Positions 6,241-53,774 of a stretch of DNA of 64,000 bases are shown one piece after another. Made by a program: the position numbers and the translations under genes. The stretch's first letter is position 1. Every line of letters begins with the position of its first letter. This DNA comes from Candidatus Marinacidobacterales bacterium (GTDB taxonomy: Bacteria > Acidobacteriota > Vicinamibacteria > Marinacidobacterales > SMYC01), in NCBI GenBank assembly GCA_965237685.1, contig CBDEGF010000004.1, positions 3,743,496 through 3,807,495 of the forward strand, given 5' to 3'. The notes below the pieces were generated by a model. It was given only the letters and a program-made list of their open reading frames with translations, did no database searches and was not told the DNA's origin.

Positions 6241-6349
6241 GGGCACTCCCATCCGGTGGAACGTGAGTTTCCGGCAAGCGTGCATGAAAAGGGAAGGTGT
6301 TGCGAGCTAGATTTGTCCTCCGAACCCGGAAAGGCAAAGGAGGTCAGAG

Positions 6350-7113: not shown

Positions 7114-7184
7114 GGGTGAGGGAGAAACGAATCGGGGGTTAAAAGGGTTGCGTTCTAGGGAACGATCCGCTAAGCTGCCGTCTG

Positions 7185-8054: not shown

Positions 8055-8055
8055 A

Positions 8056-18745: not shown

Positions 18746-20188
18746 TTCGCGGTCCCCGTCCTGTGCCAAAACTCGGCCCTTTTGAAATAGGCCATAAATC
18801 AGCAACTTAGTGTCTGTGTTTGCGACCGGGCCAAGGGCCGTGGGCTTTACAATCGTCTTGGGCGGGCGGGTCGTCACCATGCAGATGACCACCTAGTCGA
18901 GAGCGAATATCGAAGCGTGTTCCTGAAGCTGTTTCCACGCTACGCCGGTCGAGCCCGCCGAGGGGCTACCGTCGCCGGCGACCATCTACGCGGCACGGCA
19001 GTAGTAGTTGAGAATGCCCCCAAGTCGCTCTCGCGACACGATGGGGCCAGTGTCATTCGCGCTTGCCGGCAGAGGTGTGAGGAGCTCGTTGCCGAGACCT
19101 TGGTGGTTCCGTTCTGTGTGATAGTGCACTACGTATTCGGTTACCGCTGTGCGCAGGTGTCGCTCACTGAGAGGTACGAAGCGGTCGAGACACTCTCGAC
19201 GTATGGAGAGAACGAATCTTTCCGCATATGCGTTCAGATTCGGACTATTAGCGGGAAGGCGAAGGGGCTTCACGCCTGAATCTCTCAACAGCCCACGTAC
19301 CGCCTCGGTGAATAGCGGGTCCCGGTCGTGGATGAGGTATCGCTTGCCAAGGAGGAAACCATCCCACATTGTCAGTGAGGTTTCTTGCCACCTGCTTCAT
19401 CCACTCCCCGTTGGGGTCCGACGTTATCCCACCGATGCACACGCAGCGAGTGGCGATATCGATGACAAACAGGACATGGTAGCGGACGAGCCCGAACGGG
19501 TTCACAACCTCGACGGTGAACAGGTCTGTCGCAGCGATGGCGCCCCAATGAGCCTTGATGAAGGTGCTCCACGACATGCTCTTGCCCCGCTCCGGGGCAG
19601 GCGCGATACCGTGCTCGGCGAGGATCCTCTTGATAGTGTTGCGTCCGAGTTCATGTCCTAGGTTCTTGAGTGCGCCTCGCAGGCGCGTATATCCCCACGT
19701 CGGGTTCTCCTGCGCCACGCGCACAATGAGCTCACGGATGTCCTTCGCCGTCGGAGGTCGGCCTGGGCTCCGGTTCTTGCTGCCATCGTACTTGGCTGCG
19801 ATGAGGCAGCGGTACCAACGCAGAAGCGTAGCGGGTGTGGCAACGGACGCAATCTGGGCCAGCGCCTCGCGGCCCAAAGCCTGGGCCTTGACCGCGAGCC
19901 TGCGCCGGTCGTCGTCCGAGAGACTGAGACGCTTGCCCCGAAGCCCGGCTCGGAGCACACGGTTCTCCTCTTGCTGGTAGTCGATCACATCCTGCTGCTG
20001 GCGGTTGACCCAGCCAGCTAGAACGAGCAGTAGGAATTGCACGTGGTACGTCATCATGGATCTGAAGATAACACCCCCGGGCCAGACGATTGTAAAGCCT
20101 ACGGCCCTTGGCACCGGCGCAAACACAGACACTAAGCTGCTGATTTATGGCCTATTTCAAAAGGGCCGAGTTTTGGCACAGGACGGGG
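18746..20188 (-). mobile_element. IS481-family element, copy 1 (1.44 kb), with ~100-bp imperfect terminal inverted repeats
   Basis: Ends CCGTCCTGTGCCAAAACTCGGCCCTTTTGAAATAGGCCATAAATCAGCARCTTAGTGTCTGTGTTTGCG... at 18746 and its reverse complement at 20188. The transposase 18986..20132 carries a frameshift near 19370. Confidence 0.75.
18986..20132 (-). pseudogene. IS481-family transposase (HTH + rve integrase core), frameshifted
   Basis: ORF 19248..20132 (MSVFAP...NLTD) and ORF 18986..19369 ([17 protein letters not shown]...[12 protein letters not shown]...ERNHQGLGN). Together they equal the full-length protein seen at 51505. Confidence 0.7.
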
Positions 20189-20409
20189 TGTCGATGGGAA
20201 GAGTGGTAAGGATAGACGGGTCGCGGCAGCAAGAGGACTAACGGTGCTTCTGCCATCAAGTGTTGCTAGGCCGCGTTTGAATGCTGGTGTCAGTTGGCCT
20301 GTTCTATGTCGACGAACGCCATAAATTAATGATGTCGGCGTGCACACGAAGATGTCTCTGAACGTCAGGCACCCGCGCGGCCCGCAGTCGTGGCCGGTTC
20401 ACTGGGCTA

Positions 20410-20865: not shown

Positions 20866-23475
20866 TTAGAAGTTGAGGAGGGCCTTCACGCCCAAGGTTC
20901 GCGGTGGGTTGGTCAGGAAGAAGATCCGGGCGCGGGTTCCGCGCTCGCGGTCGAACGACAGCAGAGCCCGCTCGTCGGTCAGGTTGTTGATGTACAACGA
21001 CACGTCCCACTTCTCGCGACGAACGCCGATGCGCAGGTTGAGGAAGTTGTAGGCCGGCAGCTTGGGATCGTATGTGAAGGTATCCTGCGTAAGCGGGGCA
21101 CCGATGGTGTTGGCTCCGAAAGAGAGCAGGTCCAACGTGCCGAGGTCCTGGTCGCCGACTTGGGTAAAGCGGTCGCCGACGTGCTGGTAAGTAGCGGTCA
21201 CGTAGGGCACCGACTCCCCCGTCTGCCACTGGTAGGTGGCTGCGGCGGCAAGCTGGAACTGGGGCACGGTCGGCAGCCGCCGCCCCTCCACGATTCCCGT
21301 TGCCGAGGTCGGCTCCACGGTGGACTGCAGTTTCGAATCGTTGATGCTCGTGGAGATGGCAAAGTCGAAATTGCTGCTCGGCGCGAGCTCGAAATCCAAC
21401 TCGACACCGGTGCTGCGGGAGTCGGGGACGTTGAAGATGAGGCGGGAGGAACAGGATCCGGCGGTCACCGTCGCCTGGAGGTCGCTGATGTCCATGTAGT
21501 ACACGGCCACGTTCACGGAACCGCGGTTGTTCAGAAGCCTGGACTTGGTGCCGACCTCGTAGTTCCAGGTCGTCTCGTCCTCCCAGTTCTCCCGGCCGCC
21601 GAAAGTGGCGAGGTCCTCGGGAGTGCACAAAGGCACGTTGAGCGGGTCGTTGATGCCGCCGAGCCGGAAGCCCTTCGAGACTTGGCCGTTGAGGATGGTC
21701 TGGTCACTCAGATCGTAGCTGAGAATCACGCGCGGCGCCACGCCGTTGGCTGTGGTGGAGCCGGGCTGCGACACCAGGGAGACACCGTTGTTGTCGTTAC
21801 CGAAGATACCGTCGAAGATCTGCTCCTTGTCCTCCGAGAAACGGTAGAAGCGCAGGCCGCCGGTGAGGCGGAACCGGTCGGTTATGGACACGGTCGCTTC
21901 ACCGAAGAGCGCGAACTGGTTGAGCTTGTAGCCGAGGTCTGAGAAGAACAGGCTGTCCTTCGGCGCCCGCAGTCCTTGCGTGGGGATCCCGGTCAGATCC
22001 TCGAAGCCGGTCACCGGCAGGTTCTGGCCGTAGTCGCGGTCGGTGTAGCTGTAGAAGCCGCCGCCCACCCACTGGACGCGGTCGCTGTCGCCCGACAGGC
22101 GTAGCTCCTGCGTGAAGACGTTCGCGACGGTGGCGTCAAACAGCGGCGTGTCGAGGGTGTAGACCTCCTCCGGCAGGCCGATGCTCCCGCCCGTGATGCT
22201 GGCGCCCAGCGCGGTGGTGTCGCGGAGCACCAGAACGTCGCGATAGATATAGGAGGTGATCGAAGTGAGCACGACATTGCCGAAGTCGTAATGGAAATTC
22301 ACGTCGGCGAGCACGAAGTCATCGGTGAAGTCTTCCTGGAGCTGGACGAACTGCTCGCGCTCACCAAACGTGACGGCGGGCCGGGTGGTGGTGAACGGGT
22401 TCGCCAGGATGTTGAACTCGTCGACGCGGTTCCAGCCGTCCGTCTCCATCCTCTGATAGATGATGCGCGGGGTGATCGCGAACTGATCGTTGGGTGCTAT
22501 CGTGACTGCTACCCGCCCCCCGTAGCGTTTGCCGGTGTTGACGTTGTCATCGATGCTGAGGTCCGGCCGAACCTCGCCGATGAAGCCGGGGACCCGGGTG
22601 TAGTAACCCACGACGCGGACGGCAGCGGTGTCGCTGATGGGCGCGTTGAAGCCCAACTTGACGTTGCCTCCCGGGCTACCAGTATTCGTCACGCCACCGC
22701 CAAACTCGGCAAACCCTTCGGTCACACCCAGCTCCGGGTAGTTGCTGATGTAACGGACCGTTCCCGAGAGGGAGCCGGAGCCGAACAGCGTTCCCTGCGG
22801 GCCCCGCAGCACCTCGATGCGGTTCACGTCGAACAGGTCGAGGTCGGGCGTGAACAGTGAGAGGGAGATCACGGACTCGTCCAGGTACACACCGACCTGT
22901 TCCTTGACCCCCGGCTGATCGCGCACGATCTGGCCGGCGGAGATACCTCGCATCGCGACCTGGCTCTGGCCGGGGCCCAGGCTTTGTACGGTGAACCCGG
23001 CTACGTTGGCAGCCACGTCTTCGATGGTCTGAGCGCCCCGGTCGCGCAGGACATCCTCGGTCGGTGCCGCCACCGAAAACGGAACGTCGTGCACCAACTC
23101 CTCGCGCTTGAGGGAGGTGACTGTGACCTGTTCCGCGAACGGCGCGACCGCGAGGATGACGTCCACGGTCAGGATTGTGCCGGCTTCAAGGGTGAGGTCC
23201 CTTCGGGTGTGCTCGGCAAAGCCCTGGAGCGTTACTGTCAAGGAGTAGATGCCGGGGGCCAGGCTAATGGAGTAGCTGCCGTCGCTCGAGGTTGTGGCCG
23301 CACGTCGGGCGTTGGTTGCCTGGTTAGTGATCGTAACCGCAGCGCCCGGCACGAGAGCACCGAGTGTATCGCTCACTTTGCCTGTGATACGTCCCTCCGA
23401 AGACTGGGAGTAGCCGGGCAGGCCGTACAGCACGGCAGCCAGTACCACGAAGCTAAGAAACGAAAAGCGGCCCAT
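20866..23475 (-). CDS. TonB-dependent receptor with N-terminal carboxypeptidase-regulatory-like domain
   Basis: Signal peptide MGRFSFLSFVVLAAVLYGLPGYSQS, GRITGKVSD..GALVPGAAVTIT (CarboxypepD_reg), plug and barrel, C-terminus RTLGVKALLNF. Confidence 0.8.
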   Translation of the reverse strand: MGRFSFLSFVVLAAVLYGLPGYSQSSEGRITGKVSDTLGALVPGAAVTITNQATNARRAATTSSDGSYSISLAPGIYSLTVTLQGFAEHTRRDLTLEAGTILTVDVILAVAPFAEQVTVTSLKREELVHDVPFSVAAPTEDVLRDRGAQTIEDVAANVAGFTVQSLGPGQSQVAMRGISAGQIVRDQPGVKEQVGVYLDESVISLSLFTPDLDLFDVNRIEVLRGPQGTLFGSGSLSGTVRYISNYPELGVTEGFAEFGGGVTNTGSPGGNVKLGFNAPISDTAAVRVVGYYTRVPGFIGEVRPDLSIDDNVNTGKRYGGRVAVTIAPNDQFAITPRIIYQRMETDGWNRVDEFNILANPFTTTRPAVTFGEREQFVQLQEDFTDDFVLADVNFHYDFGNVVLTSITSYIYRDVLVLRDTTALGASITGGSIGLPEEVYTLDTPLFDATVANVFTQELRLSGDSDRVQWVGGGFYSYTDRDYGQNLPVTGFEDLTGIPTQGLRAPKDSLFFSDLGYKLNQFALFGEATVSITDRFRLTGGLRFYRFSEDKEQIFDGIFGNDNNGVSLVSQPGSTTANGVAPRVILSYDLSDQTILNGQVSKGFRLGGINDPLNVPLCTPEDLATFGGRENWEDETTWNYEVGTKSRLLNNRGSVNVAVYYMDISDLQATVTAGSCSSRLIFNVPDSRSTGVELDFELAPSSNFDFAISTSINDSKLQSTVEPTSATGIVEGRRLPTVPQFQLAAAATYQWQTGESVPYVTATYQHVGDRFTQVGDQDLGTLDLLSFGANTIGAPLTQDTFTYDPKLPAYNFLNLRIGVRREKWDVSLYINNLTDERALLSFDRERGTRARIFFLTNPPRTLGVKALLNF

Positions 23476-23487
23476 ACCTGATGTTAC

Positions 23488-24230
23488 CCCGTCCTGTGCC
23501 AAAACTCGGCCCTTTTGAAATAGATCATAAATCAGTAGCTTAGTGCCCGCGCAAAAATAACTTCACATTTTCGATGGGAACAAGGTGTAGTTCCATGCCG
23601 GCGAGGTTTTTGGTCTGGAAAGACAGAGAGCGTCCATGTCGGCCTGTAGGACTCGCTCACCGGTCTCGTATTTCTTTCTGACGAAAGCGAGCTCGGACCC
23701 GCAATCCGGAGGAGGTCTTCGTGGTTCGGATGTAGTGGAGAGCCGTCTGGAAGCTGACAAGCGGCTTCCCGGCCCAGTTCTTGCTGATTTCTGAGAAGAC
23801 TCGATGTTCGATGGGGTTCCATGTGGACGCTCCCGGCGGATAGTGGCAGACGGTGACCTCCAGGCGCCTCTAGTCCGAAACGTCCTGACGCGCCGGTCTT
23901 GAGTTCGTTTGTATTTTTGGACACGACGCGAGTGGGATCGGTGGTACAGCCAGACCGCGTGGATGATGATTTCGGGCGGAAATCGATATCCGCGGTAGCT
24001 CGGCGTGTCCCTTTTCATCCGCCCAGTCTGTCAGACGCCAGCCCAATTTGACAGCAATGGCACCGCCCGCGTGGGCGGAGGTCATCGGGGAGTGACCGAA
24101 ATCGTTCGTTCACTCGAAAGTACCCAGGTGCGTGGCGGCCGCCACGGTCGGATGACTTTCCGTAGCGTGCTGACGCGCGATACTGCCGTGCCGCTCGCTG
24201 GTCCGACAGAAATCCTTTAGAGTATTTACG
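23488..24230. other. IS debris: solo IS481-family end (23488-23560), inverted end of the second IS481-type (about 23875-23940), IS6-like N-terminal transposase fragment (rc 23940-24018), and a shared repeat (24040-24125)
   Basis: Sequence identity to ends defined elsewhere in the window. Confidence 0.5.
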
Positions 24231-25735: not shown

Positions 25736-25937
25736 GGCTAGGCAACACCTGATTTTCCGGTATTGACCACGTTGGCCGCTGGCTGTTGTGATCCGCAAAA
25801 AAGAAAACCGGCCAGAAGCAGCCGACTATGGTAGGTCTAACCCGCGCAATCAACGCCGGATCGACTTTTTGCGGAGCACAGCCCTCACTTGCCTCGGATT
25901 TTGTATCAACCAGGATCCGGCAAGGCTTGAGAGCATC

Positions 25938-27370
25938 CCGTCCTGTGCCAAAACTCGGCCCTTTTGAAATAGGCCATAAATCAGCAACTTAGTGTCTGTG
26001 TTTGCGACCGGGCCAAGGGCCGTGGGCTTTACAATCGTCTTAGGCGGGCGGGTCGTCACCATGCAGATGACCACCTAGTCGAGAGCGAATATCGAAGCAT
26101 GTTCCTGAAGCTGTTTCCACGCTACGCCGGTCGAGCCCGCCGAGGGGCTACCGTCGCCGGCGACCATCTACGCGGCACGGCAGTAGTAGTTGAGAATGCC
26201 CCCAAGTCGCTCTCGCGACACGATGGGGCCAGTGTCATTCGCGCTTGCCGGCAGAGGGTGTGAGGAGCTCGTTGCCGAGACCTTGGTGGTTCCGTTCTGT
26301 GTGATAGTGCACTACGTATTCGGTTACCGCTGTGCGCAGGTGTCGCTCACTGAGAGGTACGAAGCGGTCGAGACACTCTCGACGTATGGAGAGAACGAAT
26401 CTTTCCGCATATGCGTTCAGATTCGGACTATTGGCGGGAAGGCGCAGGGGCTTCACGCCTGAATCTCTCAAGAGCCCACGTACCGCCTCGGTGAATAGTG
26501 GGTCCCGGTCGTGGATGAGGTATCGCTTGCCAAGGAGGAAACCATCCCACATGTCAGTGAGGTTTCTTGCCACCTGCTTCATCCACTCCCCGTTGGGGTC
26601 CGACGTTATCCCACCGATGCACACGCAGCGAGTGGCGATATCGATGACAAACAGGACATGGTAGCGGACGAGCCCGAACGGGTTCACAACCTCGACGGTG
26701 AACAGGTCTGTCGCAGCGATGGCGCCCCAATGAGCCTTGATGAAGGTGCTCCACGACATGCTCTTGCCCCGCTCCGGGGCAGGCGCGATACCGTGCTCGG
26801 CGAGGATCCTCTTGATAGTGTTGCGTCCGAGTTCATGTCCTAGGTTCTTGAGTGCGCCTCGCAGGCGCGTATATCCCCACGTCGGGTTCTCCTGCGCCAC
26901 GCGCACAATGAGCTCACGGATGTTCTTCGCCGTCGGAGGTCGGCCTGGACTCCGGTTCTTGCTGCCATCGTACTTGGCTGCGATGAGGCAGCGGTACCAA
27001 CGCAGAAGCGTAGCGGGTGTGGCAACGGACGCAATCTGGGCCAGCGCCTCGCGGCCCAAAGCCTGGGCCTTGACGGCGAGCCTGCGCCGCTCGTCGTCCG
27101 AGAGCCTGAGACGCTTGCCCCGAAGCCCGGCTCGGAGCACACGGTTCTCCTCTTGCTGGTAGTCGATCACATCCTGCTGCTGGCGGTTGACCCAGCCAGC
27201 TAGAACGAGCAGTAGGAATTGCACGTGGTACGTCATCATGGATCTGAAGATAACACCCTCGGGCCAGACGATTGTAAAGCCTACGGCCCTTGGTCCGGTC
27301 GCAAACACAGACACTAAGCTGCTGATTTATGGTCTATTTCAAAAGGGCCGAGTTTTGGCACAGGACGGGG
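25938..27370 (-). mobile_element. IS481-family element, copy 2
   Basis: Same 100-bp ends. Transposase 26235..27314 (359 aa) has a 1-bp C insertion near the 3' end relative to copies 1 and 4 (acaccctctgcc vs acacctctgcc). Confidence 0.75.
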
Positions 27371-27372
27371 TT

Positions 27373-31668: not shown

Positions 31669-31952
31669 GGACTCAAGAAGTATAATGTGATGGCTTTGAA
31701 AACAGTACGTCAAGTGTGCGCGATGACATCCTTTATTGGGCGCGATGGCGTTCGTCGGCACATGCAGGTCAACTAACATAGCATTCAAAGGCCTCCAACG
31801 CCCCGCAGCACCGGTGTCGAGTTTGATTTCGAGCTCGCGCCGACCCGCAATTTCGACTTTGCCATTTCACGAGCTTCAACAACTCCCAGATGCAATCCAC
31901 CGTGCAGCCAACCTCGGCAACGAGAATCCTGGAGGGGCGGCGGCTACCGATC

Positions 31953-32940
31953 CCGTCCTGTGCCAAAACTCGGCCCTTTTGAAATAGGCCATAAATCAGC
32001 AGCTTAGTGTCTGTGTTTGCGCCGGGGCCAAGGGCCGTAGGCTTTACAATCGTCTGGCCCGAGGGTGTTATCTTCAGATCCATGATGACGTACCACGTGC
32101 AATTCCTACTGCTCGTTCTAGCTGGCTGGGTCAACCGCCAGCAGCAGGATGTGATCGACTACCAGCAAGAGGAGAACCGTGTGCTCCGAGCCGGGCTTCG
32201 GGGCAAGCGTCTCAGTCTCTCGGACGACGAGCGGCGCAGGCTCGCCGTCAAGGCCCAGGCTTTGGGCCGCGAGGCGCTGGCCCAGATTGCGTCCGTTGCC
32301 ACACCCGCTACGCTTCTGCGCTGGTACCGCCACCTCATCGCAGCCAAGTACGATGGCAGCAAGAACCGGAGTCCAGGCCGACCTCCGACGGCGAAGGACA
32401 TCCGTGAGCTCATTGTGCGCGTGGCGCGGGAGAACCCGACGTGGGGATATACGCGCCTGCGAGGCGCACTCAAGAACCTAGGACATGAACTCGGACGCAA
32501 CACTATCAAGAGGATCCTCGCCGAGCACGGTATCGCTCCTGCGCCGGAGCGGGGCAGGAGCATGTCGTGGAGCACCTTCATCAAGGCTCATTGGGGCGCC
32601 ATCGCTGCGACAGACCTGTTCACCGTCGAGGTTGTGAACCCGTTCGGGCTCGTCCGCTACCATGTCCTGTTTGTCATCGATATCGCCACTCGCTGCGTGT
32701 GCATCGGTGGGATAACGTCGGACCCCAACGGGGAGTGGATGAAGCAGGTGGCAAGAAACCTCACTGACATGTGGGATGGTTTCCTCCTTGGCAAGCGATA
32801 CCTCATCCACGACCGGGACCCGCTATTCACCGAGGCGGTACGTGGGCTGTTGAGAGATTCAGGCGTGAAGCCCCTTCGCCTTCCCGCTAATAGTCCGAAT
32901 CTGAACGCATATGCGGAAAGATTCGTTCTCTCCATACGTG
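31953..32940 (+). mobile_element. IS481-family element, copy 3, 3'-truncated at about 32940 where an IS256-family remnant begins
   Basis: Left 100-bp end plus transposase ORF 32007..33014, identical to copy 4 up to ...[18 protein letters not shown]. Confidence 0.7.
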
Positions 32941-33016
32941 GAGAGTGTCTCGACCGCTTCGTACCTCTCATTCTTCCCTTCCAACAGAGGCTGCGACGAT
33001 ACCCATCCAACTGATG

Positions 33017-34700: not shown

Positions 34701-34962
34701 GGTCGAAGGGTGCTTCCGCCATTAAGTGTTGGTAAGATGACGCTAAGACTTTACGCTGCATTAAATCACAGCCAAAATAGCGCTCGCGACCTTCGCCGCG
34801 CGCAAATGGAGCGTAAGCGATTTTTTTGCAAAGGGATACGTACACATCACCAACAGCAAACAGCGCAAGCACCGTGCCATGGCGGCATTCTTGCACACGT
34901 GAGCGTGGTTTGCCTATAGTGCTGTCGCGTGCTCCATACCGCGCTAGGAGGAAAACATCTAA

Positions 34963-35679
34963 ATGAGCAAAGATAACTGGAGTGATCTTGCGTCGGCGCT
35001 CAACTCCAAGCTAAAACTGCAAGCCACACCTATTGCCATCACCTTTTCCAACGACTTCCAAGGAGTTCCGCCATTCGAGGGACCGACCCCGGCGCCGATG
35101 CCCGATGGGCGGACTGGCAAGGTCCCTGCGGGCTGCGTTTTCTGGATGAAGGCAACGGACCGTACGTTCAGCACCGTCGCCGAAGATCACGGCAATTGCA
35201 GTGTCGGAAGCTTGACGCACGGCCTCAAGACAATGGACGAAGTAGCCGGCAATAGCGACGTGGCTGCGCTCCTAGATAGCGGATGGGTCACGATGGATGT
35301 CGTCCCTCAAATCCCGGTGGTCAAGACCAAGTACCGCTACATTACCTACGGACCGCTCGTGGAGAGCTCGGATCCGGACGTGGTCGTCGTTCGCCTCAAC
35401 GCAACACAACTTATGGTCCTTCATGACGCAATCCCCGGTCTTCGCTTCGAGGGAAAACCCCAGTGTCACATCGTCGCCATCGCCAAGGAGCAAGGTGAAA
35501 TCGCGGCCAGTGTCGGGTGCATGCTAAGCCGGATCCGTACAGGGATGTCACCCAGCGAAGTGACGTGCGCGATCCCGGCCTCCAAGCTGGGCGACGTCAT
35601 CGAGGCGCTCGATTCCACTTGCGTGGCGGACGGCAAGGTGGCGACGTACGCTGCAGAAGATGGGAAGCGATTCGCCTAG
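34963..35679 (+). CDS. hypothetical protein, possibly DUF169-like
   Basis: 238 aa, no signal peptide. Cys-containing motifs (GCVFWMK, GNCSVGS, PQCHIVAIAKEQGEIAASVGC). The family assignment is tentative. Confidence 0.35.
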   Translation: MSKDNWSDLASALNSKLKLQATPIAITFSNDFQGVPPFEGPTPAPMPDGRTGKVPAGCVFWMKATDRTFSTVAEDHGNCSVGSLTHGLKTMDEVAGNSDVAALLDSGWVTMDVVPQIPVVKTKYRYITYGPLVESSDPDVVVVRLNATQLMVLHDAIPGLRFEGKPQCHIVAIAKEQGEIAASVGCMLSRIRTGMSPSEVTCAIPASKLGDVIEALDSTCVADGKVATYAAEDGKRFA

Positions 35680-35716
35680 GACCCTAAGTCGGTCAAACCC
35701 CGTGAGGTCAAAATAC

Positions 35717-36578
35717 TCATGCGCGTCGTGTCCAAAAATACAAACGAACTCAAGACCGGCTTGCCGGGACGTTTCGGAATAGACGTGTCTACGCTTGGTT
35801 CGCAGCACTTGAATGACCGGGTTGATTTCTCCGGGATTGCAGGCTAGCGTAATCTTTAAACAGACAGCGAGGAGAGGAGAGACAAATGCAGCCACTTTAC
35901 GATCCCGAGGGTGTTCGGCCCATGTGGGAGGAGCTTGCCCAATGCGGGGTCGAGCCCGTGCAAACAAGAGAGAACGTTGACGAGGCCTTGAAGAGGCCTG
36001 GGACAACGCTCGTGGTGGTGAACTCGGTTTGTGGATGTGCTGCCGGCTCGGCGCGCCCGGGTGTGACTCGCGCCCTGCAACACAGCACAATTCCCGATCA
36101 CCTCACGACGGTCTTCGCCGGCGTGGACCGTGAGGCCACGGAGCGCGCCAGAGAGCACATGGTCGGCGTTGCTCCGAGCTCACCTTCGGTGGCTCTTTTC
36201 AAAGACGGCGAGCTCGTGCACATGCTTGAGCGACGGCATATAGAGATGATGAACGACGAGATGGTGGCGCAGAACCTGACCGAGGCTTTCGACAAGTACT
36301 GCTCTCGACAGGGACCGTCCGTCCTCAGAGAAGAGTACGAGAAGGTGGTGCACGCCCGGCAGTGTGGCTCCTCGGTGCCGCTGTTCGATCCCCTCTCAAA
36401 CCACTAGCAGGCGCTCTTCTCCCCGGCAAAGTCCAGTCCCGTCTCGCCCTCGGCGGCCGTTCCCCGCCCGTGGCGCGCCCCACCACCCATCAGGCCAGCC
36501 GTGCGCACCCCCGGCAAAATCATCCCAGAACGTCCCGGCGCGTGGGTCTTGAGTGCGTTTGTGTTTTTGGACACGACG
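35717..36578 (+). mobile_element. MITE-like element bounded by inverted copies of the ~75-bp terminus of the second IS481-type IS, carrying a bacilliredoxin gene instead of a transposase
   Basis: 35717-35790 matches the 45790-45870 left end (TCGTGTCCAAAAAYACAAACGAACTCAAGACCGGC..GCCGGGACGTTTCGGAATAGACG). 36525-36578 is the same terminus inverted. Confidence 0.55.
35886..36407 (+). CDS. bacilliredoxin (YphP/YqiW, DUF1094 family; BrxA/BrxB-type)
   Basis: GTTLVVVNSVCGCAAGSARPGVTRAL...TVFAGVDREATERAREHMVGVAPSSPSVALFKDGELVHMLERRHIE...NLTEAFDKYC matches B. subtilis YphP almost motif by motif, including the CGC redox motif. Confidence 0.8.
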   Translation: MQPLYDPEGVRPMWEELAQCGVEPVQTRENVDEALKRPGTTLVVVNSVCGCAAGSARPGVTRALQHSTIPDHLTTVFAGVDREATERAREHMVGVAPSSPSVALFKDGELVHMLERRHIEMMNDEMVAQNLTEAFDKYCSRQGPSVLREEYEKVVHARQCGSSVPLFDPLSNH

Positions 36579-36690
36579 GGACTAGGACTCTACATCGTAA
36601 GCGTCCGCTCCCACCATGTTCCCGATACGTCGCTCCCGAGGCATCCTTTGTGTGCTCGCCACTGGAGGCGGGGGACGAAGGAGGCAAGAG

Positions 36691-37056
36691 ATGTCGAAGC
36701 GAAGGACAGCGGGGATATCGAAAGTGATAGGGAAGCGGCGCTGGGCAGAGGCGGATGCGCGGAATGTTGTGTCGTCATGGCAGCGTAGTGGGAAGCGTGT
36801 CTCGGAGTTCGCCAGGGAGTACGGGTTGACCTCCCAGCGGCTGGTTCGGTGGTCGGAGCGACTGCAAGGCGGGTCGAGGGGGAGTGTACGGTTTCATCCG
36901 GTTCGCCTGGTGGGAGGCGAGCGAGAAGGCGAGCGAGGAGGCGAGAGGGACGCGATCGAGGTGGTGTTGTTGGACGGCAGGCGCGTACGAGTGCGTGAGG
37001 GGTTCTCATCTGAGGAGCTGGGTCGGGTGCTCGAAGTTCTAGAAGGTCGAGCGTGA
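36691..37056 (+). CDS. tnpA: IS66 TnpA (orfA)
   Basis: [61 protein letters not shown] gaaggagg upstream. Confidence 0.75.
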
Positions 37057-39503: not shown

Positions 39504-39762
39504 CAGTTCCCGTGCCATAAACCCCCTATTCCGGGGCGAATGCTGCGTATTCCGGGGCATCGTGAACGCAGATTCCAGCCGAAGGTGAACATCCATTCCA
39601 AAGCATCGTGAACACGGATTCCGGGGATCGTGAACATGGATTCCGGGGAAGGTGAACACGGATTCCAGGCAACGTGAACGCCGGTTCCGGCATCGCGAAC
39701 GCTCATCGATAGCACGTTTCAAGGCACTCTAGGTCGTACCCGGAAGGAGGACGATCTAGGAA

Positions 39763-41320
39763 ATGGCAGCTAAGAGGTTATCGATGAGAAAAATACGAGA
39801 GGTTCTAAGGTTAAAGTACGAGCTGGGTTTTACTCACCGCACGATCGCAAAGGCACTTCGCGTGGCGGTTGGAACGGTGAGTGAGTACCTGGCCAAGGCG
39901 AAGAAGGGTGGTCTGAGCTGGCCGCTCCCGGAGGAGCTGAGCGACGGGGAGCTGGAGGCAGGGCTGTTTCCGCCGCCGGGCTCGTCTGGCGCACGGCCGG
40001 GTCTGGACTATGCCCACATCCACGAGGAGCTGAGGCGTCACCGAGAGCTGACGTTGCTGCAGCTGTGGGTGGAGTACGCGGAGAATAAGCCGGGAGCGTA
40101 CGGCTACAGCCGTTATTGCGAGCTGTACGGTCAGTGGAAGAAGAAGCTGAACCCGACGATGCGTCAACGGCATCGAGCAGGCGAGAAGACATTCGTCGAT
40201 TTTTCGGGGGAAGAAGCCTCACATCGTCGATCCGAAAACGGGAGAGCTCGTCGAAATGGAACTGTTCGTCGGGACGTTGGGCGCGAGCAGTTACACCTAC
40301 GTCGAAGCGACACTGAACCAGTCGCTGGAATCGTGGGCGAAGGCCCATAAGGGGATGTCGGATTACTTCGGTGGCAGTACGGAGATCTGGGTTCCGGACA
40401 ACTTGAAGAGCGGCGTGGATTTGGTGGACCGTTACGAGCCAGGGATCAACCGGACGTACGAAGAGCTGGCGACGCATTACGGTGCGGTTGTGGTCCCGGC
40501 TCGGGTGTTCAAGCCGAAAGACAAAGCGAAGGTGGAGTCGGCAGTGCAGGTGGCGCAGCGCTGGATCCTGGCGGTGCTTCGTCATCGCACGTTCTTCAGC
40601 CTGGCGGAACTGAACGAAGCCATCTGGGAGAAGTTAGAGGTCCTGAATGCGCGTCCGATGCAGAAGCTCGGTGTGAGTCGGCGGGAGTTGTACGAAAGGC
40701 TAGACCGGCCCGTACTGAAACCGCTACCGCAGGAGAGCTACGAGTTATCGACGTGGAAGCGGTGCAGAGTGAACATCGACTACCACGTGGAGGTGGAGAA
40801 CAACTTGTACAGCGTTCCCTATCAGCTCATTCACGAGAAAGTCGAGGCACGGGTGACGGCCTCGGTGGTGGAGGTCCTGTTCAAGGGAAAGCGCGTCGCG
40901 TCGCATCCCCGCAAGAAAGGAAAGGGGCACTACTCCACGAACCCGGAGCATATGCCACGTTCGCATCGGGAGCACCTGGAGTGGACGCCGTCGCGGCTGC
41001 TCCACTGGGCGGAGCAGTCAGGTCGCGCCACGGGAAGGCTGGTTGCGGGGATTCTAGAGAGTCGGCCTCACCCGGAGCAGGGATTTCGCTCTTGCCTGGG
41101 AGTCATGCGACTAGGCAGCCGCTGGGGCAGTGAGCGTCTCGAGGCCGCTTGCGCACGAGCGGAAGCTTTGAGCTCTTACAGCTATCGCACGGTGAAAAAC
41201 ATTCTCTCGGCTGGTCTGGATCGTGTGGTGCTCGAATCGGACGCCGAAGCGAAACCGCGAGAGGAGCACGAGAACATCCGAGGCGCGGATCACTACGAAG
41301 GAGGAGAGTCCCGATGCTGA
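39763..41320 (+). pseudogene. istA: IS21 IstA transposase, +1 frameshift in a G-run at about 40213
   Basis: ORF 39763..40350 is the HTH N-terminus. ORF 40256..41320 is the DDE core. tcgggggaagaag has one G too many relative to the frame that restores the DDE-core frame (...FSGKKPHIVDPKTGELVEMELFVGTLG). Confidence 0.75.
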
Positions 41321-42072: not shown

Positions 42073-43149
42073 GCGAGCGAGGGACCACAGCGTCGATGCG
42101 ATAAAAACGGGTGAAACCGCCAAACCCGGGGTACCAGACGATGCGGCGCCAAAACGACGCGCGAGAATGCCTCAGGAAGCGTCTTCTCGAGCCAGGCCAT
42201 ACCCCAGCAACCCCCGAAACCAGCCCCACATCGCCCGGGGTTCGGCCGCGGCAGGTCGCTGCCTACGGGAGCGGGAAGGTCGCTTCGCGTCTTTCCTTAC
42301 GCCCGCTCCCTCCGGCACCGACCTGCCGCCCCTTGCTACACAACACGCAGGTAAGATAGGTTCACGTTTTCAATCAGTGGAAAGGAGGTCACCCAACACT
42401 TCATCGCTTCGATGAGCGTTCGGCTTCACCGGATTCGCTGTTCAGCTTGCTCTGGATTCGGCGTTCACGATGGCTGGAATACGCACGAATGCGTCATGGG
42501 GACACCAGACGCATACTCTACATCGCCCGGGAATTAGCCGAGTACCACGGTTGGAAGTTGCAGATGCACGATGAGTTCGGCAGCGTCCGCGAAGGGCGGC
42601 TAAACAAGTTTGTACTCGACTTGGGGTAGAGATGGGGCCACGAGAATAGAATCGTTGAGGCGTTCCAGTGCAACGAGATCGAAAAGATCCTTTTGATCGA
42701 CGACGCGTACGATCCTCCAGTACTCGATGAGTCCTGCGGCGCGAAATACCCTCGATTCTGCGCGGATTCCAAGGGCGTCTAACCTGCTGATTTGTGGTCT
42801 ATTTCAAAAGGGCCGAGTTTTGGCACAGGACGGGGTCTTCCAGTTCCATCGCGACTCCTTCCGCTGAACTGGAATACGTATCCGACCGCAATGGCCGATT
42901 TCAAGCGGCCTTTGGGAAGGTGCAAACTGCTGACCTGCTGGGCGTTCGAGTTTTTTGACCAGACGGCCGAGTTTTGGCACAGGACGGGGGAGGAACGGCG
43001 AGCTGCTGGCGAAGAGCGACATTCTCGAGAGCCAGCTCGCGACGAGCCTTGAAGGCAGAGACGAGAGCGCGAACAAACGACGAAATCATACCGGCATGGT
43101 CCCGGCAGACCGGAGACTAATCAAGTTCGGTGCGCGCGGATGAATAAAT

Positions 43150-43690
43150 AGAAGGCACACCCTCCGATAATAGTCCGAATCTGAACGCCTACGCGGAAAG
43201 ATTCGTTCTCTCCAATACGTCGAGAGTGTCTCGACCGTTTCGTCCCTCTCAGTGAGAGACACCTGCGGACAGCGGTAACCGAATACGTTGTGCACTATCA
43301 CACCGAACGGAACCACCAAGGCATCGGCTACGAGCTCATCACACCTCTGCCTGCAAGCGTGAAGGACGCTGGCCCCGTCGTGTCGCGAGAGCGACTTGGA
43401 GGCATTCTCAACTACTACTACCGTGCGGCATAGATTGTCGTCGGCGACGGTCGCCCCTCGGTGGGCTCGGCCGGCGTAGTGTGGAAACACAGCTTCAGGA
43501 ACGCGCTTTGGATATTCGCTCTCGACCAGGTGGTTGTCTGCATGGTGACGACCCGCCCGCCCAAGACGATTGTAGAACCTACAGCCCTTGGCACGGTCGC
43601 AAACACAAACACTAAACTGCTGATTTATCGTCTATTTCAAATGGGCCGAGTTTTGGCACAGGACGGGATTCACGGCGGCGCATACGATTG
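43150..43690 (+). mobile_element. 3' fragment of the IS481-family element (5'-truncated, degenerate)
   Basis: Begins inside the transposase ([12 protein letters not shown]...) and ends with the right 100-bp terminus at 43690. Frameshifted. Confidence 0.6.
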
Positions 43691-43722: not shown

Positions 43723-44540
43723 TCAGCCATTGGTGCGCCAATTCGGCGGCAGGGCGGCCATTAAATATGTGCAAACCAGACATGCTGACGATCGGGCAAG
43801 CGTTGTTCCGGATTCTGGTCGAATATGACTCAGGTTCCTCTGTTCATCTTTCCAATAGGACCATACGTCGAATTCGTCTTCCGGCCCCAGATCGAACGCG
43901 ACCGAGGACTGTTCGCCAACCGGAAGGGACTTGGTGCGTAAATTCAGGCCAGGGCCACAATTCGTTGCGTCTGGTTCACGGGACGGTGTCAACCGACCCT
44001 CCAGTCTGACCGGCAGAAGCTGGTTCAACCGAAGCCTGTTACGAAATGCGCCAAACCATTTATCGACCATCGTCTTGTAGATGCGCAACGCCGCCGAGTA
44101 AACCGCGATCGTTCGCTCGAGCAGTCGTTCATCACTATAGAGATCCCACACCCAACGGCCACTGTCCGTCAGCAAGTCTGCGGACGGCCACGGGTCGGCA
44201 ATAAGGCGGTCGCCACGGTCGACCAGTGTCGACAAATGACGTTTTACGAGCGTTACTTCATAATTTGAAAACTTGGCCGTTCCAACACTGACACTCATCC
44301 GGCGCCCCATCGGGTCGTCGACGGCACGGTTGATTGCATTGACAACGCTGAGTACCTCACGGAGATTGATTGGCGTCGGATCCAGGCTTCCTGATCGCTT
44401 CACTGCAAGGGCCAGAACCCACGCGAGTTCCCGAACTGCGTCATTTGACTCCAACGCAAACCACTTGGATTTCAAGGACTCGGACAGAGAATCGGCCAGA
44501 TAACCTTTCGTGGTCGACCACGGGGTGGCGGAGAGCTCGA
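43723..44540 (-). CDS. hypothetical protein fragment (N-terminus missing), lower GC
   Basis: About 270 aa of non-repetitive sequence (…NLREVLSVVNAINRAVDDPMGRRMSVSVGTAKFSNYEVTLVKRHLSTLVDRGDRLIADPW…YSAALRIYKTMVDKWFGAFRNRLRLNQLLP…). No match I can name. Its 5' side abuts the truncation point of the receptor fragment. Confidence 0.35.
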
Positions 44541-44559
44541 TGCCGCTCGTGTCGATGCC

Positions 44560-45709
44560 TTCAGGTAGGCGAACGTGTTGTTCCGCCGCGTCTGCCAGCC
44601 CGGCCGGTAGAACTGGTTCAGGTATGGGACGCCGGGCCACTCGCCGACCAGGCGGTCCCACCGCGGGTTGGCCTGGAAGTCGGCATCGCTGTAGAGCCGC
44701 TGGTAGGTGTCCTCGTGGATGCTGTCGTACGAGATGTAGCTGGTGAGATCGAGACGCCCGTGCGACGAGACCAGCTTGGCGGCGACGTGCTCCCGCTCGT
44801 TCCGCGCCGCACCCTGCACCCAGTCGGTCGCCTCCTGGCGGACCGCGGCGATCCAGGCGCGGGTCTCACGGCCGAACAGCGGCCCGGTATCGACCCGCAT
44901 GGAGAACCGCTTGCCGTCGTTCTCGCCGATGGTGGTCGACGCGGTGTAGGTCCGCTCCGCCGCCGGATCGTCCGTGATGAAGTTGAAGGTGCCGCCCAGC
45001 GCTTCGACCGACCGGGAGACGATGTCAGCCGTCCCCTGCGACACCTCGACACCTCCAAGGTTCATCGGGTCGATGAACCGATTCGCCTTAGAGCCGCTCC
45101 AGTAGTCGGACGTGCCGTTCGGGAATCCGTCGATGGTGGTGCCGATCTGCGCTTCGTTGATGGTCACCTGGAAGCCGCGCACGGCGACGTTGCTCGACCA
45201 GTCATCGAAGCCGTACGCGTCCCCCTCCTGGATGGATACTCCGGGGAGGTTGTCCACCATCGACGTGACGCTGGTGATGTTTGACTGCTGCAGCATCATC
45301 GGTTCGGCGACGACGTTGCGCGCAAAGATCTGGGGCTCCTCGGCGATGACGCTGACCGTTTCGAGCAGGCGGGCGATCTGCAGCGTGATCGAGACCGATG
45401 CGGTGGCGCCCGCCTGGACGGAGACCGGGGCTTCCGCCGTTTCGAAGCCCTGCAGCACCGCCGTGACGACATAGTCACCTGCCGCCAGACCGGCGGCGGT
45501 GTAGGCGCCGTCCACGCCGGTGACGTGTTCCTGGCGCACGCCGGGACCCGCCACCGTCACAACGACGCTGGGCAACGGGCTGCCGTTCGCGTCGACGACC
45601 GCGCCTTCAATCGATCCGGTCGTCTGGGCGGCGGCCCGCGCAGCCGGTAACGAGAGCAGCAGGACGGCGACGGCGAGCGGTACAGCGATGGGCGTGTGTC
45701 GCTTCATGG
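44560..45709 (-). pseudogene. TonB-dependent receptor N-terminal fragment (signal peptide, CarboxypepD_reg, plug), truncated at about 44560
   Basis: MKRHTPIAVPLAVAVLLLSLPAARAAAQTTGSIEGAVVDANGSPLPSVVVTVAG...VSVIAEEPQIF...NLPGVS.... After NTFAYLKA the frame decays. Confidence 0.65.
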
Positions 45710-45789
45710 CAACTCTCATAAGACTAGCGTCCCCCTCTCCACCTACTGTCACCGAACGGCGCTTCGAGATTTTACATCTATTACGGGTG

Positions 45790-47000
45790 GATTGCTGCGC
45801 GGTCACGTCGTGTCCAAAAACACAAACGAACTCAAGACCGGCTCGCCGGGACGTTTCGGAATAGACGTATCTACGCTTGATTGGCCAATGGGAGCTAGAA
45901 TCCTCGGTCATGAGCACGCCGATCCAGCCCTTGACATTGTTGGTCATCACCATCGCTGGTTGGATCCAGCGTGACCAACAGGCCGCTATGGTCTACTTGC
46001 TCGAGGAGAACAAAGTCCTCAAAGCTCGGCTTTGCGGGAGGAAGCTTCGTCTCACAGACGACGAGCGACGTCGGCTCGCGGTAAAGGGTAAGGCGCTTGG
46101 CCGGAAACTCTTGGCAGAAGTCGCCGGTATCGTCACACCGGAAACCCTGCTGGCTTGGCACCGAAGGCTGATTGCGCGGAAGTGGGACTACAGCGAGCGG
46201 CGGAAACAGCCCGGACGGCCCCGGGTCATGGCCGAGATTAGCAAGCTTGTCGTAGGGATGGCGAAGTCGAATCCGAGGTGGGGGTATACACGCATTCGCG
46301 GCGCCCTCTCGAATCTCGGCCATACGGTAGCCAGGAGCACCATCGCCAATATTCTGCGAGAACATGGCATCGAGCCCGCGCCGGAGCGAAGTGAGCGAAC
46401 GCCATGGCGCACGTTTCTCGCCGCCCATTGGGAAACCGTTGCTGCGACCGACTTCTTCACCGTCGAGGTCGCCACAGTTCGCAGGCTCGTGACCTACTAT
46501 GTGCTGGTCGTCATCGAGCTGTCTTCGCGAAAAGTGCACATTGCCGGAATAACTCCCGGGCCAGATGGCCCGTTCATGATGCAGGTCGGTCGGAATCTCA
46601 CCGACCCATTCGACGGCTTTCTGCGCGGCAAGCGATTCCTCATCCTGGACCGCGACCAGAAGTTCACCACGGAGTTTCGCGATTTGCTCGAGCACGCCGG
46701 AACGGACGTCATTCGGCTGCCGCACCGTTCGCCGAATCTGAACGCTTATGTCGAAAGGTTTGTTTTGTCGATCAAGAGCGAGTGCTTGGAGCGGATGATC
46801 TTCTTCAGTGAGCAATCGCTGCGCCGTGCCGTCGCTGAGTTCATCCATCATTATCACGGAGAGCGCAACCATCAAGGGCTCGGGAACGCGTTGCTCGAAG
46901 CGGAAGAATGCGTCGGCAGTCCTCACGGGAAGGTGCGATGTCGTAAGCGATTGGGCGGTTTGCTCAGCTATTACCACCGCGACGCCGCATAGGAGTTCGG
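45790..47000 (+). mobile_element. second IS481-type element, about 65% identical transposase to the multicopy one; right end not identifiable
   Basis: Left terminus at 45790-45870 is shared with 35717, 23875 (inverted), 36525 (inverted) and 60405 (inverted). Transposase 45910..46992. Confidence 0.6.
45910..46992 (+). CDS. IS481-family transposase (HTH + rve)
   Basis: MSTPIQPLTLLVITIAGWIQRDQQAAMVYLLEENKVLKARL...NPRWGYTRIRGAL...LILDRDQKFT...SPNLNAYVERF...ERNHQGLGN. The ORF also offers a TTG at 45877. Confidence 0.75.
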   Translation: MSTPIQPLTLLVITIAGWIQRDQQAAMVYLLEENKVLKARLCGRKLRLTDDERRRLAVKGKALGRKLLAEVAGIVTPETLLAWHRRLIARKWDYSERRKQPGRPRVMAEISKLVVGMAKSNPRWGYTRIRGALSNLGHTVARSTIANILREHGIEPAPERSERTPWRTFLAAHWETVAATDFFTVEVATVRRLVTYYVLVVIELSSRKVHIAGITPGPDGPFMMQVGRNLTDPFDGFLRGKRFLILDRDQKFTTEFRDLLEHAGTDVIRLPHRSPNLNAYVERFVLSIKSECLERMIFFSEQSLRRAVAEFIHHYHGERNHQGLGNALLEAEECVGSPHGKVRCRKRLGGLLSYYHRDAA

Positions 47001-47462
47001 GCGCGCCAGTTGGACGGAACGGCTGGTCTGCAGGAGAGGTCTGCTCGGGGTCGCCTATCGCAGAGCCAGTACCGCGTCGGCTGGTCTCCGCGAGTTTTGA
47101 GAACGCCTCTAGGATTCGACCTTGCCGCTCCGTTCGCGTTTTCGGACAGGACGCCCAAACCTCCGGATTTGCCGGTCGCAGCCTGGATCAACCCGCCGCC
47201 AAACAACGAGACGCTCGAGATTGGCTCAGGAGCGACGTTGGAGTCATCGGACGACCTGGAGGTACCCTCGGGTTGCGTCACTTACAGGGATCCTTCCGGA
47301 CCCCATCTCGACTCCTCCGCGACCGACGCCCGGCTCGCGCGGTGCAGAACTGAGCAGCAAATCCGACTGGAGCCTGATCCGGCGCTCGATTCGGATGGCG
47401 CCCTCATGCGCCCCGAAACACGAGCGGGAGCTCACTAAATGCAGAGACTTTGTGTCTCAAAA

Positions 47463-51442: not shown

Positions 51443-52626
51443 GCACTATCGCGTCCTGTGCCAAAACTCGGCCCTTTTGAAATAGGCCATAAATCAGCAG
51501 CTTAGTGTCTGTGTTTGCGCCGGGGCCAAGGGCCGTAGGCTTTACAATCGTCTGGCCCGAGGGTGTTATCTTCAGATCCATGATGACGTACCACGTGCAA
51601 TTCCTACTGCTCGTTCTAGCTGGCTGGGTCAACCGCCAGCAGCAGGATGTGATCGACTACCAGCAAGAGGAGAACCGTGTGCTCCGAGCCGGGCTTCGGG
51701 GCAAGCGTCTCAGTCTCTCGGACGACGAGCGGCGCAGGCTCGCGGTCAAGGCCCAGGCTTTGGGCCGCGAGGCGCTGGCCCAGATTGCGTCCGTTGCCAC
51801 ACCCGCTACGCTTCTGCGCTGGTACCGCCACCTCATCGCAGCCAAGTACGATGGCAGCAAGAACCGGAGTCCAGGCCGACCTCCGACGGCGAAGGACATC
51901 CGTGAGCTCATTGTGCGCGTGGCGCGGGAGAACCCGACGTGGGGATATACGCGCCTGCGAGGCGCACTCAAGAACCTAGGACATGAACTCGGACGCAACA
52001 CTATCAAGAGGATCCTCGCCGAGCACGGTATCGCTCCTGCGCCGGAGCGGGGCAGGAGCATGTCGTGGAGCACCTTCATCAAGGCTCATTGGGGCGCCAT
52101 CGCTGCGACAGACCTGTTCACCGTCGAGGTTGTGAACCCGTTCGGGCTCGTCCGCTACCATGTCCTGTTTGTCATCGATATCGCCACTCGCTGCGTGTGC
52201 ATCGGTGGGATAACGTCGGACCCCAACGGGGAGTGGATGAAGCAGGTGGCAAGAAACCTCACTGACATGTGGGATGGTTTCCTCCTTGGCAAGCGATACC
52301 TCATCCACGACCGGGACCCGCTATTCACCGAGGCGGTACGTGGGCTGTTGAGAGATTCAGGCGTGAAGCCCCTTCGCCTTCCCGCTAATAGTCCGAATCT
52401 GAACGCATATGCGGAAAGATTCGTTCTCTCCATACGTCGAGAGTGTCTCGACCGCTTCGTACCTCTCAGTGAGCGACACCTGCGCACAGCGGTAACCGAA
52501 TACGTAGTGCACTATCACACAGAACGGAACCACCAAGGTCTCGGCAACGAGCTCCTCACACCTCTGCCGGCAAGCGCGAATGACGCTGGCCCCATCGTGT
52601 CGCGAGAGCGACTTGGGGGCATTCTC
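51443..52626 (+). mobile_element. IS481-family element, copy 4, 3'-truncated at 52626 where an IS630 remnant begins
   Basis: Transposase 51505..52665. Identical to other copies up to ...GGILNYYC, then diverges (HDEQIRCP*) at the junction. Confidence 0.75.
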
Positions 52627-53480
52627 AACTACTACTGCCACGATGAGCAGATCCGTTGTCCATAATCCAGAATACTCGTCTGGCGTGTCGATAAGGGGTT
52701 CGCTTCATAATCATCTCGACGAGCCGATCGAAGGGTGCAATTCCATTGTTGGGTTCGCATCGGCCAAAGATCTTCATTCGGTGAACATCCACTGCGGCCA
52801 GGTACGCCCAGGCTCCGAGCCTTTCATACTCATGTTCTACTTTCATCGCCGACCCAGGGCGAGTCGGTATGGTCTCATGACGTCGATGGCGTGCTTGAAT
52901 GCTCGTTTTTTCGTCCGCACAGATCACGAATTCGTCTTCTCTGAGGGGCCGTCGCCTCCAACGCCGTTCGTACAAGTCAAGTATGGGCCCGGCTTTCGCG
53001 GCGAAGTTCGGATCCCTAGGGAAGACCCAAGAGCGATGTTGCCAGGGTCGGATGGCGTCCTCACTGAGCCAGCGCCAGATGGTGGTATTGCTGACGGACG
53101 CCACAAGCCCCGATTGACGCACATGGTCGGCGAGTTCGGAAGTGCTCCACCGCGACAGAGGTACTCCCAGTGTTGAGGGTAATTCGCAAGCGATGGCCTT
53201 GACCTCAACGACTACCTCTGGGGGGAAAAACCCGGGGACGCCCCAAGCGTTCCCGATCTTCCAGACCGGAAAGACGTTGGTCGAAGAACCTTTTGCGCCA
53301 CATGCTTACCACCTCACGTCGCGTGTTGAGGCGTTGCGCAATCTCGTCGTTGGCGAGACCCTGGGCGGCCAACAGAATCATTCGTGCACGGAGTACATGA
53401 AAATACGGCAACGTTATATTTCCGTGCCCTCCGCTGGAGCTCCAACTTCTCTTTTGGGCTCAATCGTATTTTATATGGGC
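52627..53480 (-). mobile_element. IS630-family remnant: HTH ORF (53205..53411) and DDE ORF (52625..53122) in different frames, 3'-truncated
   Basis: WVFPRDPNFAAKAGPILDLY...FVICADEKTSIQA...[11 protein letters not shown] is the DDE_3/IS630 pattern. ARMILLAAQGLANDEIAQRLNTRREVVSMWRKRF is the HTH. AT-rich left end, then an IS481-family end fragment at 53583-53637. Confidence 0.65.
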
Positions 53481-53774
53481 TGTGTCGAGGCATACTTGAT
53501 GCTCCGTTTCGCTGAGTATGTAGTCATCGCCTCGATATTGCAAATTAAATATACGTTAGTGTATTTAAGAAACCGCCTACTAAGTTGCTGATTTATGGCC
53601 TATTTCAAAAGGGCGAGTTTTGGCACAGGACGGGGTCAAAGCTAGCAGCTAGCGGGCTGACGCATCGTGCCAACGTGTCTTTGACCCCTCTAGGCAATCA
53701 TAGTAGTATGTTTTCTGCTCGTTCGGGCTTCTGCACCACGCAGCTTGGCGGTTAGTGACCCTCGAATCGAGGTC

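Follow-up and report, generated by a model that had tools for sequence, protein, structure and literature searches.

A unit with IS481-like ends around a bacilliredoxin gene in 'Candidatus Marinacidobacterales' resembles a mobile insertion cassette

Anatomy of the bacilliredoxin locus

In the 64-kb window (the whole stretch of DNA that was analyzed), a transposase-less unit of 855 bp with inverted insertion sequence (IS) ends lies at 35724-36578 and contains a single intact gene, which encodes a bacilliredoxin (brx). Both ends of this unit, referred to here as the cassette, are copies of the left terminus of a neighboring IS481-like element at 45806-47155, which we label ISB; ISA is our label for a second, related IS. 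The features of the locus and the ISB-derived sequences of the window are as follows.

34963-35679 (+): DUF169 gene (PF02596), the usual upstream neighbor, outside the cassette
35701-35723 (+): left flank, the first 23 bp of a repeat termed E, which is then cut off by the left repeat of the cassette
35724-35803 (+): left inverted repeat, which copies 80 nt of the left terminus (IRL) of ISB
35804-35820 (+): short linker between IS-derived and brx-derived DNA, delimited by aligning the cassette with ISB and the native orthologous loci
35821-35885 (+): native brx upstream region, with putative promoter and ribosome-binding site (homology with IS-free loci)
35886-36407 (+): brx, BrxA/BrxB-family bacilliredoxin of 173 aa (PF06491, TIGR04191, 3FHK alignment)
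36408-36521 (+): 3' spacer, which holds the palindrome GGCGCGCC at 36472-36479
36522-36578 (-): right inverted repeat, with 57 nt of the same ISB left terminus in inverted orientation
45806-47155 (+): ISB, the cognate autonomous element, with an intact 360-aa DDE transposase ORF at 45910-46992
23867-23931 (-): solo ISB terminus, found by terminus search
60336-60455 (-): truncated ISB left end, 117 nt long and extending into the transposase gene

The left repeat, the outer tip of which reads CGTCGTGTCC, is 94% identical over 80 nt to ISB at 45806-45885, in direct orientation. Within the cassette, 35724-35780 and 36522-36578 form an inverted pair of 57 nt with 84% complementarity, and the right repeat is 84-87% complementary to 35724-35780 and to 45802-45862. 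This right repeat tracks the IRL sequence for 52-57 nt; the true right end of ISB matches IRL for only ~25 nt. Therefore, the cassette has two left-type ends, which face outward. The original prediction of a transposase-less unit with the left terminus of the neighboring IS481-like element repeated in inverted orientation at its two ends holds, with the repeats far above chance. Two of the predicted boundaries need a small shift, as the left repeat starts at 35724 instead of 35717 and the IS at 45806 instead of 45790.

The ORF list contains no transposase-like ORF inside 35724-36578, and among the ORFs scanned inside the unit, which also has other, overlapping ones, the 173-aa bacilliredoxin is the only one with a family match. 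A sigma-70 consensus scan of 35600-36700 found no promoter, and the promoter function of 35821-35885 is only putative. An Rfam scan of 35500-36800 gave no match. The likeness of 36456-36495 to the segment of ISB that follows its transposase gene was attributed to chance, as 41 of 200 shuffles attained its local alignment score of 22.

Identity and origin of the bacilliredoxin gene

The brx ORF matches Pfam family PF06491 (E=6e-57, 192 bits) and the NCBIfam model TIGR04191 BrxA/BrxB (186.9 bits, above the cutoff of 100), and its product aligns with the structure of B. subtilis YphP (3FHK, E=3.5e-36), VCGCAAG being among the aligned residues. All three comparisons agree that the sole cargo is a complete bacilliredoxin, as originally proposed. 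The CGC active site is C49-G50-C51 (codons 49-51, 36030-36038). The protein thus falls into the same DUF1094/TIGR04191 family as BrxA/BrxB (YphP/YqiW) of Bacillus and Staphylococcus and has the same CGC motif context, VVNSVCGCAAG, as aligned to PDB 3FHK and 7RZB. It differs from them by an additional C-terminal extension of 34 aa, which most close homologs, judged by their length, would also have. From its family membership, the brx product is predicted to reduce S-bacillithiolated proteins via the CGC site. Complete bshA-C pathways have been reported in Acidobacteria (Hiras et al., 2018; PMC6282198).

It had been suggested that bacilliredoxins are uncommon outside Firmicutes and that brx was plausibly acquired horizontally through its IS vehicle; the distribution of its homologs bears out neither view. 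The best 120 of 7,999 scored homologs are 65-99% identical and mostly 169-175 aa long, and the few organism-named entries among them are all acidobacterial. In a scan of species-representative genomes, three 'Candidatus Marinacidobacterales' representatives match brx at 98-100%, followed by Terriglobia at ~70% and many Flavobacteriia (Bacteroidota) at ~60%. The closest homologs are acidobacterial, share 65-87% identity and are mostly of the same length. In relatives whose proteins are 87, 81, and 78% identical, brx lies in ordinary IS-free neighborhoods (DUF2007-brx-PatA_N, FG-GAP-brx-SBF, and DUF4097-brx). DNA homology to the 87% relatives (IS-free loci L010-L013) extends over 35821-36392 at 81% identity; the 65 bp that precede the ATG are thus part of it and contain a conserved block, GTTGnTTyCTCC..GATTnCAGGCTAGCGTA. 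IS-derived DNA ends at ~35803, and brx-derived homology begins at 35821.

The acidobacterial homologs, the IS-free orthologs with the same upstream DNA, and the bshA-C genes reported in Acidobacteria (PMC6282198) thus indicate a lineage-native gene. By sequence comparison, brx is a resident acidobacterial gene that was later bracketed by IS ends, rather than foreign cargo, and it carried its own upstream region into the cassette. That brx is foreign cargo of the Firmicutes type, imported by an IS vehicle, is highly improbable: the likeness to YphP is the sole point in its favor, and the same three lines of evidence argue against it, together with the ~170-aa length of most of the nearest homologs and the presence of the gene in Bacteroidota.

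ISB and its ends

The ISB transposase contains the Pfam domains rve_3, HTH_21, and HTH_32. Its best NCBIfam match is NF033577 transpos_IS481 with 102.6 bits (cutoff 224), followed by IS3 with 84 bits; "IS481-like" is a fair description of the element, given that its score for the IS481 model lies below the curated cutoff. An exact sequence look-up of the transposase returned no record. ISB, an intact copy of which lies 10 kb from the cassette, is a candidate source of transposase in trans.

The 33-nt terminus of ISB, GTCGTGTCCAAAAACACAAACGAACTCAAGACC, occurs five times in the 64-kb window, with an expectation of 0 in shuffled sequences. It is found at 45807 (+) with 0 mismatches, at 35725 (+) and 36545-36577 (-) with 1 mismatch each, and in further copies at 23895-23927 (-) and 60421-60453 (-), which belong to the solo terminus and the truncated left end listed above and had escaped the original prediction. 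The solo terminus abuts what, judged by eye, is an apparent transposase gene fragment of the ISAzo13 type. The right end of ISB (47121-47155) is degenerate, hence the short match to its left end noted above.

A non-coding ISB MITE of ~190 bp, which like the cassette retains the tip, is present at L006/L007 (4442-4630) and also at L027 and L028. It is built from the 33-nt left tip joined to ~150 bp of the final ISB DNA, including the right repeat, and its right end likewise matches the ISB left end for only ~25 nt. The sequence directly left of its tip differs between L006 and L007. Because this MITE keeps just the 33-nt tip of the left end, these 33 nt are probably the functional end of ISB. 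In the cassette, the 33-nt tips are near-perfect at both ends and have the outward orientation needed for transposition.

A solo inverted 33-nt ISB tip was also observed in L108 (6588-6627), 25 bp downstream of a 4HBT thioesterase gene, so that solo ISB ends can adjoin genes without forming a cassette. In a JGI metagenome scan, the IRL/brx junction had 0 matches, and the ISB tip was found on four contigs, each with an ISB-like left end and the start of the transposase gene and none with a cassette.

Cassette copies and junctions in related genomes

Loci on ~20 contigs, retrieved via Brx, DUF169, methyltransferase, and RRM look-ups, were examined (designated by L numbers). The cassette is present on at least 19 long-read contigs, at least 16 of which encode an identical Brx protein, and its right repeat is absent in 11 of the 19 tabulated contigs. 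Across three GTDB species representatives, cassette identity is 98-99.6%. All DNA common to the window and the other loci is either IS/MGE DNA or the DUF169-brx module. The question of copy number raised by the original prediction has a clear answer: there are several copies, at different loci, and their boundaries coincide with the repeat tips in several genomes.

Three left contexts were found, with homology starting at 35720-35724. The DUF169 gene is the left neighbor in most contigs; in L029 and L107, it is a SAM-methyltransferase gene, the stop codon of which abuts the left repeat; and in L009, it is a gene for an RRM RNA-binding protein. For L009, L029, and L107, homology starts exactly at the tip of the left repeat (35724). 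On the other side, copies that have the right repeat lose homology at 36578-36580 and fall into three contexts: the flank seen in the window, followed by IS66; ACGTCAAGACG... in L022, L024, L025, and L110; and a 96-bp ISA end in L001/L004.

Two cassette copies are found on a single contig of 5,693,529 bp, L004 at ~5.54 Mb and L029 at ~5.15 Mb. These copies are ~0.38 Mb apart and 98.6% identical. The former has a truncated DUF169 gene upstream and both repeats, and the latter has the methyltransferase gene upstream. In addition, a cassette-free RRM locus is present on two contigs (L108/L109). It is 95% identical to the L009 locus, and this identity stops exactly at the repeat tip: TAAGCCC is followed by CACTCC... 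and the terminator of the gene in the cassette-free version, and by GTCGTGTCC... (which begins GTCGTG) in L009. There is no ISB end at the junction of the cassette-free locus. The native 3' flank of the RRM gene was not found within L009, and the empty site covers the left junction only. No empty methyltransferase site was found, as the only close homolog (P0121, L107) also has the cassette. A neighbor-joining tree built on 683 bp, with 0-22 differences, places the methyltransferase-site copies inside the diversity of the DUF169-linked ones, which fits a secondary relocation, and shows the RRM-site copy as the most divergent.

The usual DUF169 neighbor is itself repeated. An identical DUF169 protein is encoded on 12 contigs, one of which (ctg836658) has it twice, and in one genome the gene is duplicated (L006 and L020, on the same 4.68-Mb contig); one copy is followed by IRL and brx, and the other by IRL (85 bp), a MITE, and an LGT gene. 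The DUF169-site arrangement, which is the commonest, also differs from a clean insertion in its left flank. Repeat E is ~137 bp long, begins GTGAGGTCAAAATACTCATGCGGCTTCCCGATGG, is always preceded by CC(C) and normally continues GCTTCCCGATGG...; it was found in L021 (8090), L110 (10304), L009 (6927 and 7381), and L022 (3256 and 9767). Its remainder was found at none of the right flanks. Hence, a clean insertion does not account for this arrangement, in which E is truncated on the left and its rest is missing. Right flank R1 and the right flank of the window were tried as interior parts of E, with no match. In L022, a group II intron with an RVT_1 ORF (5739-8624, -) separates DUF169 from the cassette; it is inserted at the point equivalent to window position 35700 and has two RF02005 D1-D4 matches (~178 bits); in this locus, the terminus of repeat E is the homing site of the intron.

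Comparison with known mobile elements

Mobile insertion cassettes (MICs) consist of IS-derived inverted repeats around one or more passenger genes, lack a transposase and are mobilized in trans (PMC3913671). They include MIC231 of Bacillus cereus, in which IS231 ends surround adp or fosfomycin-resistance genes and the IS231A transposase acts in trans, as well as mic-qnrD and mic-qnrS2 (PMC3913671). A MIC is the closest known kind of element to the cassette. As in MICs, two IS-derived inverted repeats bracket a passenger gene that is unrelated to transposition, no transposase is encoded inside, an intact cognate IS is present in the same genome, and the cargo has its own expression signals, which are putative here; the cassette also occurs at multiple sites and in multiple copies. 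A target-site duplication, a further feature of MICs, was not found, in a test of low power given that full ISA copies also lack one. The cassette also differs from MIC231 and the mic-qnr elements in that its ends derive from an IS481-like element and are both of the left-end type, its host is acidobacterial, and it carries a redox gene of the housekeeping type that is native to the lineage, as opposed to a resistance or accessory gene.

The cassette had originally been labeled MITE-like. MITEs are short (typically under about 600 bp), non-coding, non-autonomous elements that keep only the IS termini. The cassette shares with them its non-autonomous nature and the retention of IS termini, but it is not a MITE because it is 855 bp long and coding, with an intact gene of 522 bp, and its anatomy is that of a MIC. 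In composite transposons such as Tn5, Tn9, and Tn10, complete IS copies flank the cargo. The cassette resembles these in that its cargo lies between inverted copies from the same IS with identical outward-facing ends. However, what it retains of the IS is limited to 80 nt on one side and 57 nt on the other, with no transposase encoded in either flank, and without complete IS copies it does not qualify as a composite transposon.

Possible origin and mobility of the cassette

We lean toward the view that the cassette is a non-autonomous unit of the MIC type, which has been relocated or copied via its IRL-type tips by the ISB transposase acting in trans. Most probably, ISB copies would have inserted on either side of a resident brx and then lost their interiors. 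The ISB transposase would recognize the two ~33-nt tips in trans, and the cassette may have been moved or copied in this way between the DUF169, methyltransferase, and RRM sites in 'Candidatus Marinacidobacterales' genomes. The junctions, the contig with two copies, the empty RRM site, and the tree are what would be expected of a cassette that had moved through its ends. Against mobility, the window has five ISB ends in 64 kb, solo ends occur elsewhere, and by a rough estimate the probability of a chance outward-facing pair of ISB ends within 1 kb is ~0.08, so that such a coincidence is not particularly improbable.

The cassette might instead be what is left of a collapsed composite transposon, in which two inverted complete ISB copies moved brx and their transposase genes were later deleted internally. 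Its two IRL-type ends are as the outward IRLs of two inverted IS copies would leave them, and ISB derivatives with internal deletions do exist (the 190-bp MITE in L006/L007). We regard this as unlikely, given that a full ISB lies beside brx in none of the ~20 contigs and that even the most divergent copies (L009, L028) have the same truncated ends of 80 nt and 57 nt as all the others; any collapse therefore predates the observed relocations. Such an origin is compatible with the MIC explanation and differs from it only in the mobility that would have preceded the collapse.

The junctions also bear on whether the unit has ever moved as such. No target-site duplication was found at any junction when the 30-nt flanks of every ISB-type end were compared in the window and in ~30 related loci. 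The duplication that had been envisaged around 35717 and 36578 did not materialize either, as no combination of left and right flanks contains a direct repeat. The two full-length ISA copies in the window are also without duplications, so that this test is weak either way. IS-mediated deletions and inversions in the region, of which there have clearly been many, explain the missing duplications at the full ISA copies. Among the ~20 contigs, there is no copy with both repeats intact and both flanks new: the copies at the methyltransferase and RRM sites are cut by other elements at 36406, 36480, or 36509. Foreign-element junctions in or beside the cassette are located at 35808 (where, in L020, a 167-bp MITE abuts the cassette linker), 36406, 36439-36442, 36471-36481, and 36509-36511, and the continuation expected past them is absent within 6-8 kb, a pattern typical of deletions or inversions and not of clean insertions. 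Therefore, with no target-site duplication, no copy with both ends in a new site and many deletions and inversions, transposition of the cassette as a unit is likely rather than proven.

These same features could be read differently, with brx as a chromosomal resident that happens to have a decayed solo ISB end, remaining from an independent insertion, on either side and with a unit that never transposed; its diversity would then stem from homologous recombination between ISB, ISA, or MITE copies and from IS-mediated rearrangement, i.e., adjacent deletions, inversions, and segmental duplications. We consider this a credible but less probable account. It would accommodate the missing target-site duplications, the left flank formed by a truncated repeat E without its remainder, and the foreign-element junctions that lack a continuation (36406, 36439-36511, and 35808). 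It would also fit the partial duplicate in L020, where DUF169 and IRL occur without brx and a MITE, instead of an ISB tip, marks the end of the duplicated segment. Solo ends of ISB are common, and homologous recombination between abundant ISB ends of 80-117 nt could generate tip-exact junctions. However, reciprocal recombination relocates a segment and does not by itself duplicate it, and one contig has two copies. Recombination would also need ISB ends already in place at the methyltransferase and RRM sites, and the cassette-free RRM locus has none. Moreover, both cassette ends retain near-perfect outward-facing 33-nt tips.

If the cassette has truly been mobilized, as the MIC explanation holds, it would broaden MIC-type gene capture to include an IS481-like element and the Acidobacteriota. 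The gene turned into IS cargo during a massive IS expansion would then be a housekeeping redox gene native to the lineage instead of one for resistance, and the locus would usefully illustrate the reshuffling and duplication of ordinary genes by IS blooms. It is a more doubtful proposition that the MIC actively copies what is possibly the only bacilliredoxin of the lineage around, and possibly between, the IS-saturated Marinacidobacterales genomes. In that event, a core thiol-redox gene would be IS cargo, with its copy number and location set by transposition. What is known of transposition and of bacillithiol biology is unchanged by the cassette, and cross-phylum transfer is not part of the picture.

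IS-rich surroundings of the cassette

The cassette is contained in an IS graveyard that extends from ~18 kb to ~61 kb of the window. ISA, the second IS481-like element, is 1,436 bp long with terminal inverted repeats of ~113 nt at 93% identity, and its transposase region shares ~64% DNA identity with ISB. It is represented in the window as follows.

18755-20189 and 25937-27371: ISA full copies
31952-32970, 51452-52639, and 43164-43667: ISA partial copies
23486-23545, 42779-42836, 53579-53636, and 58331-58419: ISA solo ends

IS256, IS66, and IS21 elements adjoin the cassette region. IS66 starts at 36597, and its right end, which was sought as a means of extending the right flank of the window, is absent because an IS21-type element truncates IS66. 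Direct-repeat arrays with a unit of ~22 bp (CGTGAACAnGGATTCCGG) were observed at 39549-39690 and 42431-42483, with inverted counterparts 2.8 kb away. We take these arrays to be the multiple terminal repeats of a putative IS21-type element, with an ORF for a Mu-transposase C-terminal domain at 40256-41320.

Downstream of brx, the palindromic site at 36472-36481 (GGCGCGCCCC) is a point at which three different IS481-like ends abut the equivalent position (36480/36481) in other contigs, namely ISC in L005/L008/L026, ISA in L006, and an ISB-type end in L029, which suggests a hot spot of insertion or breakage. On the other side of the cassette, a MITE-like repeat of 167 bp lies directly upstream of the DUF169 promoter region (34708-34874). 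Nearly all related loci have several copies of this repeat, in both orientations, and in L020 it constitutes the breakpoint at 35808.

Genes for TonB-dependent receptors (CarboxypepD_reg, Plug, and barrel) are present at 20866-23502 and 44472-45953 (-), and the second of these, next to ISB, encodes a receptor without the beta-barrel domain. A similar receptor of 964 aa is encoded near the cassette in other contigs, upstream in L005/L008 and on the opposite side, downstream, in L022/L024; its position on opposite sides of the cassette suggests inversions. Finally, the gene at 60779-62833 (-) encodes BrxL, the Lon-like protease of the BREX phage-defense system (PF13337, E=7e-145), which is unrelated to bacilliredoxin despite its name and lies ~300 bp from an ISB end.
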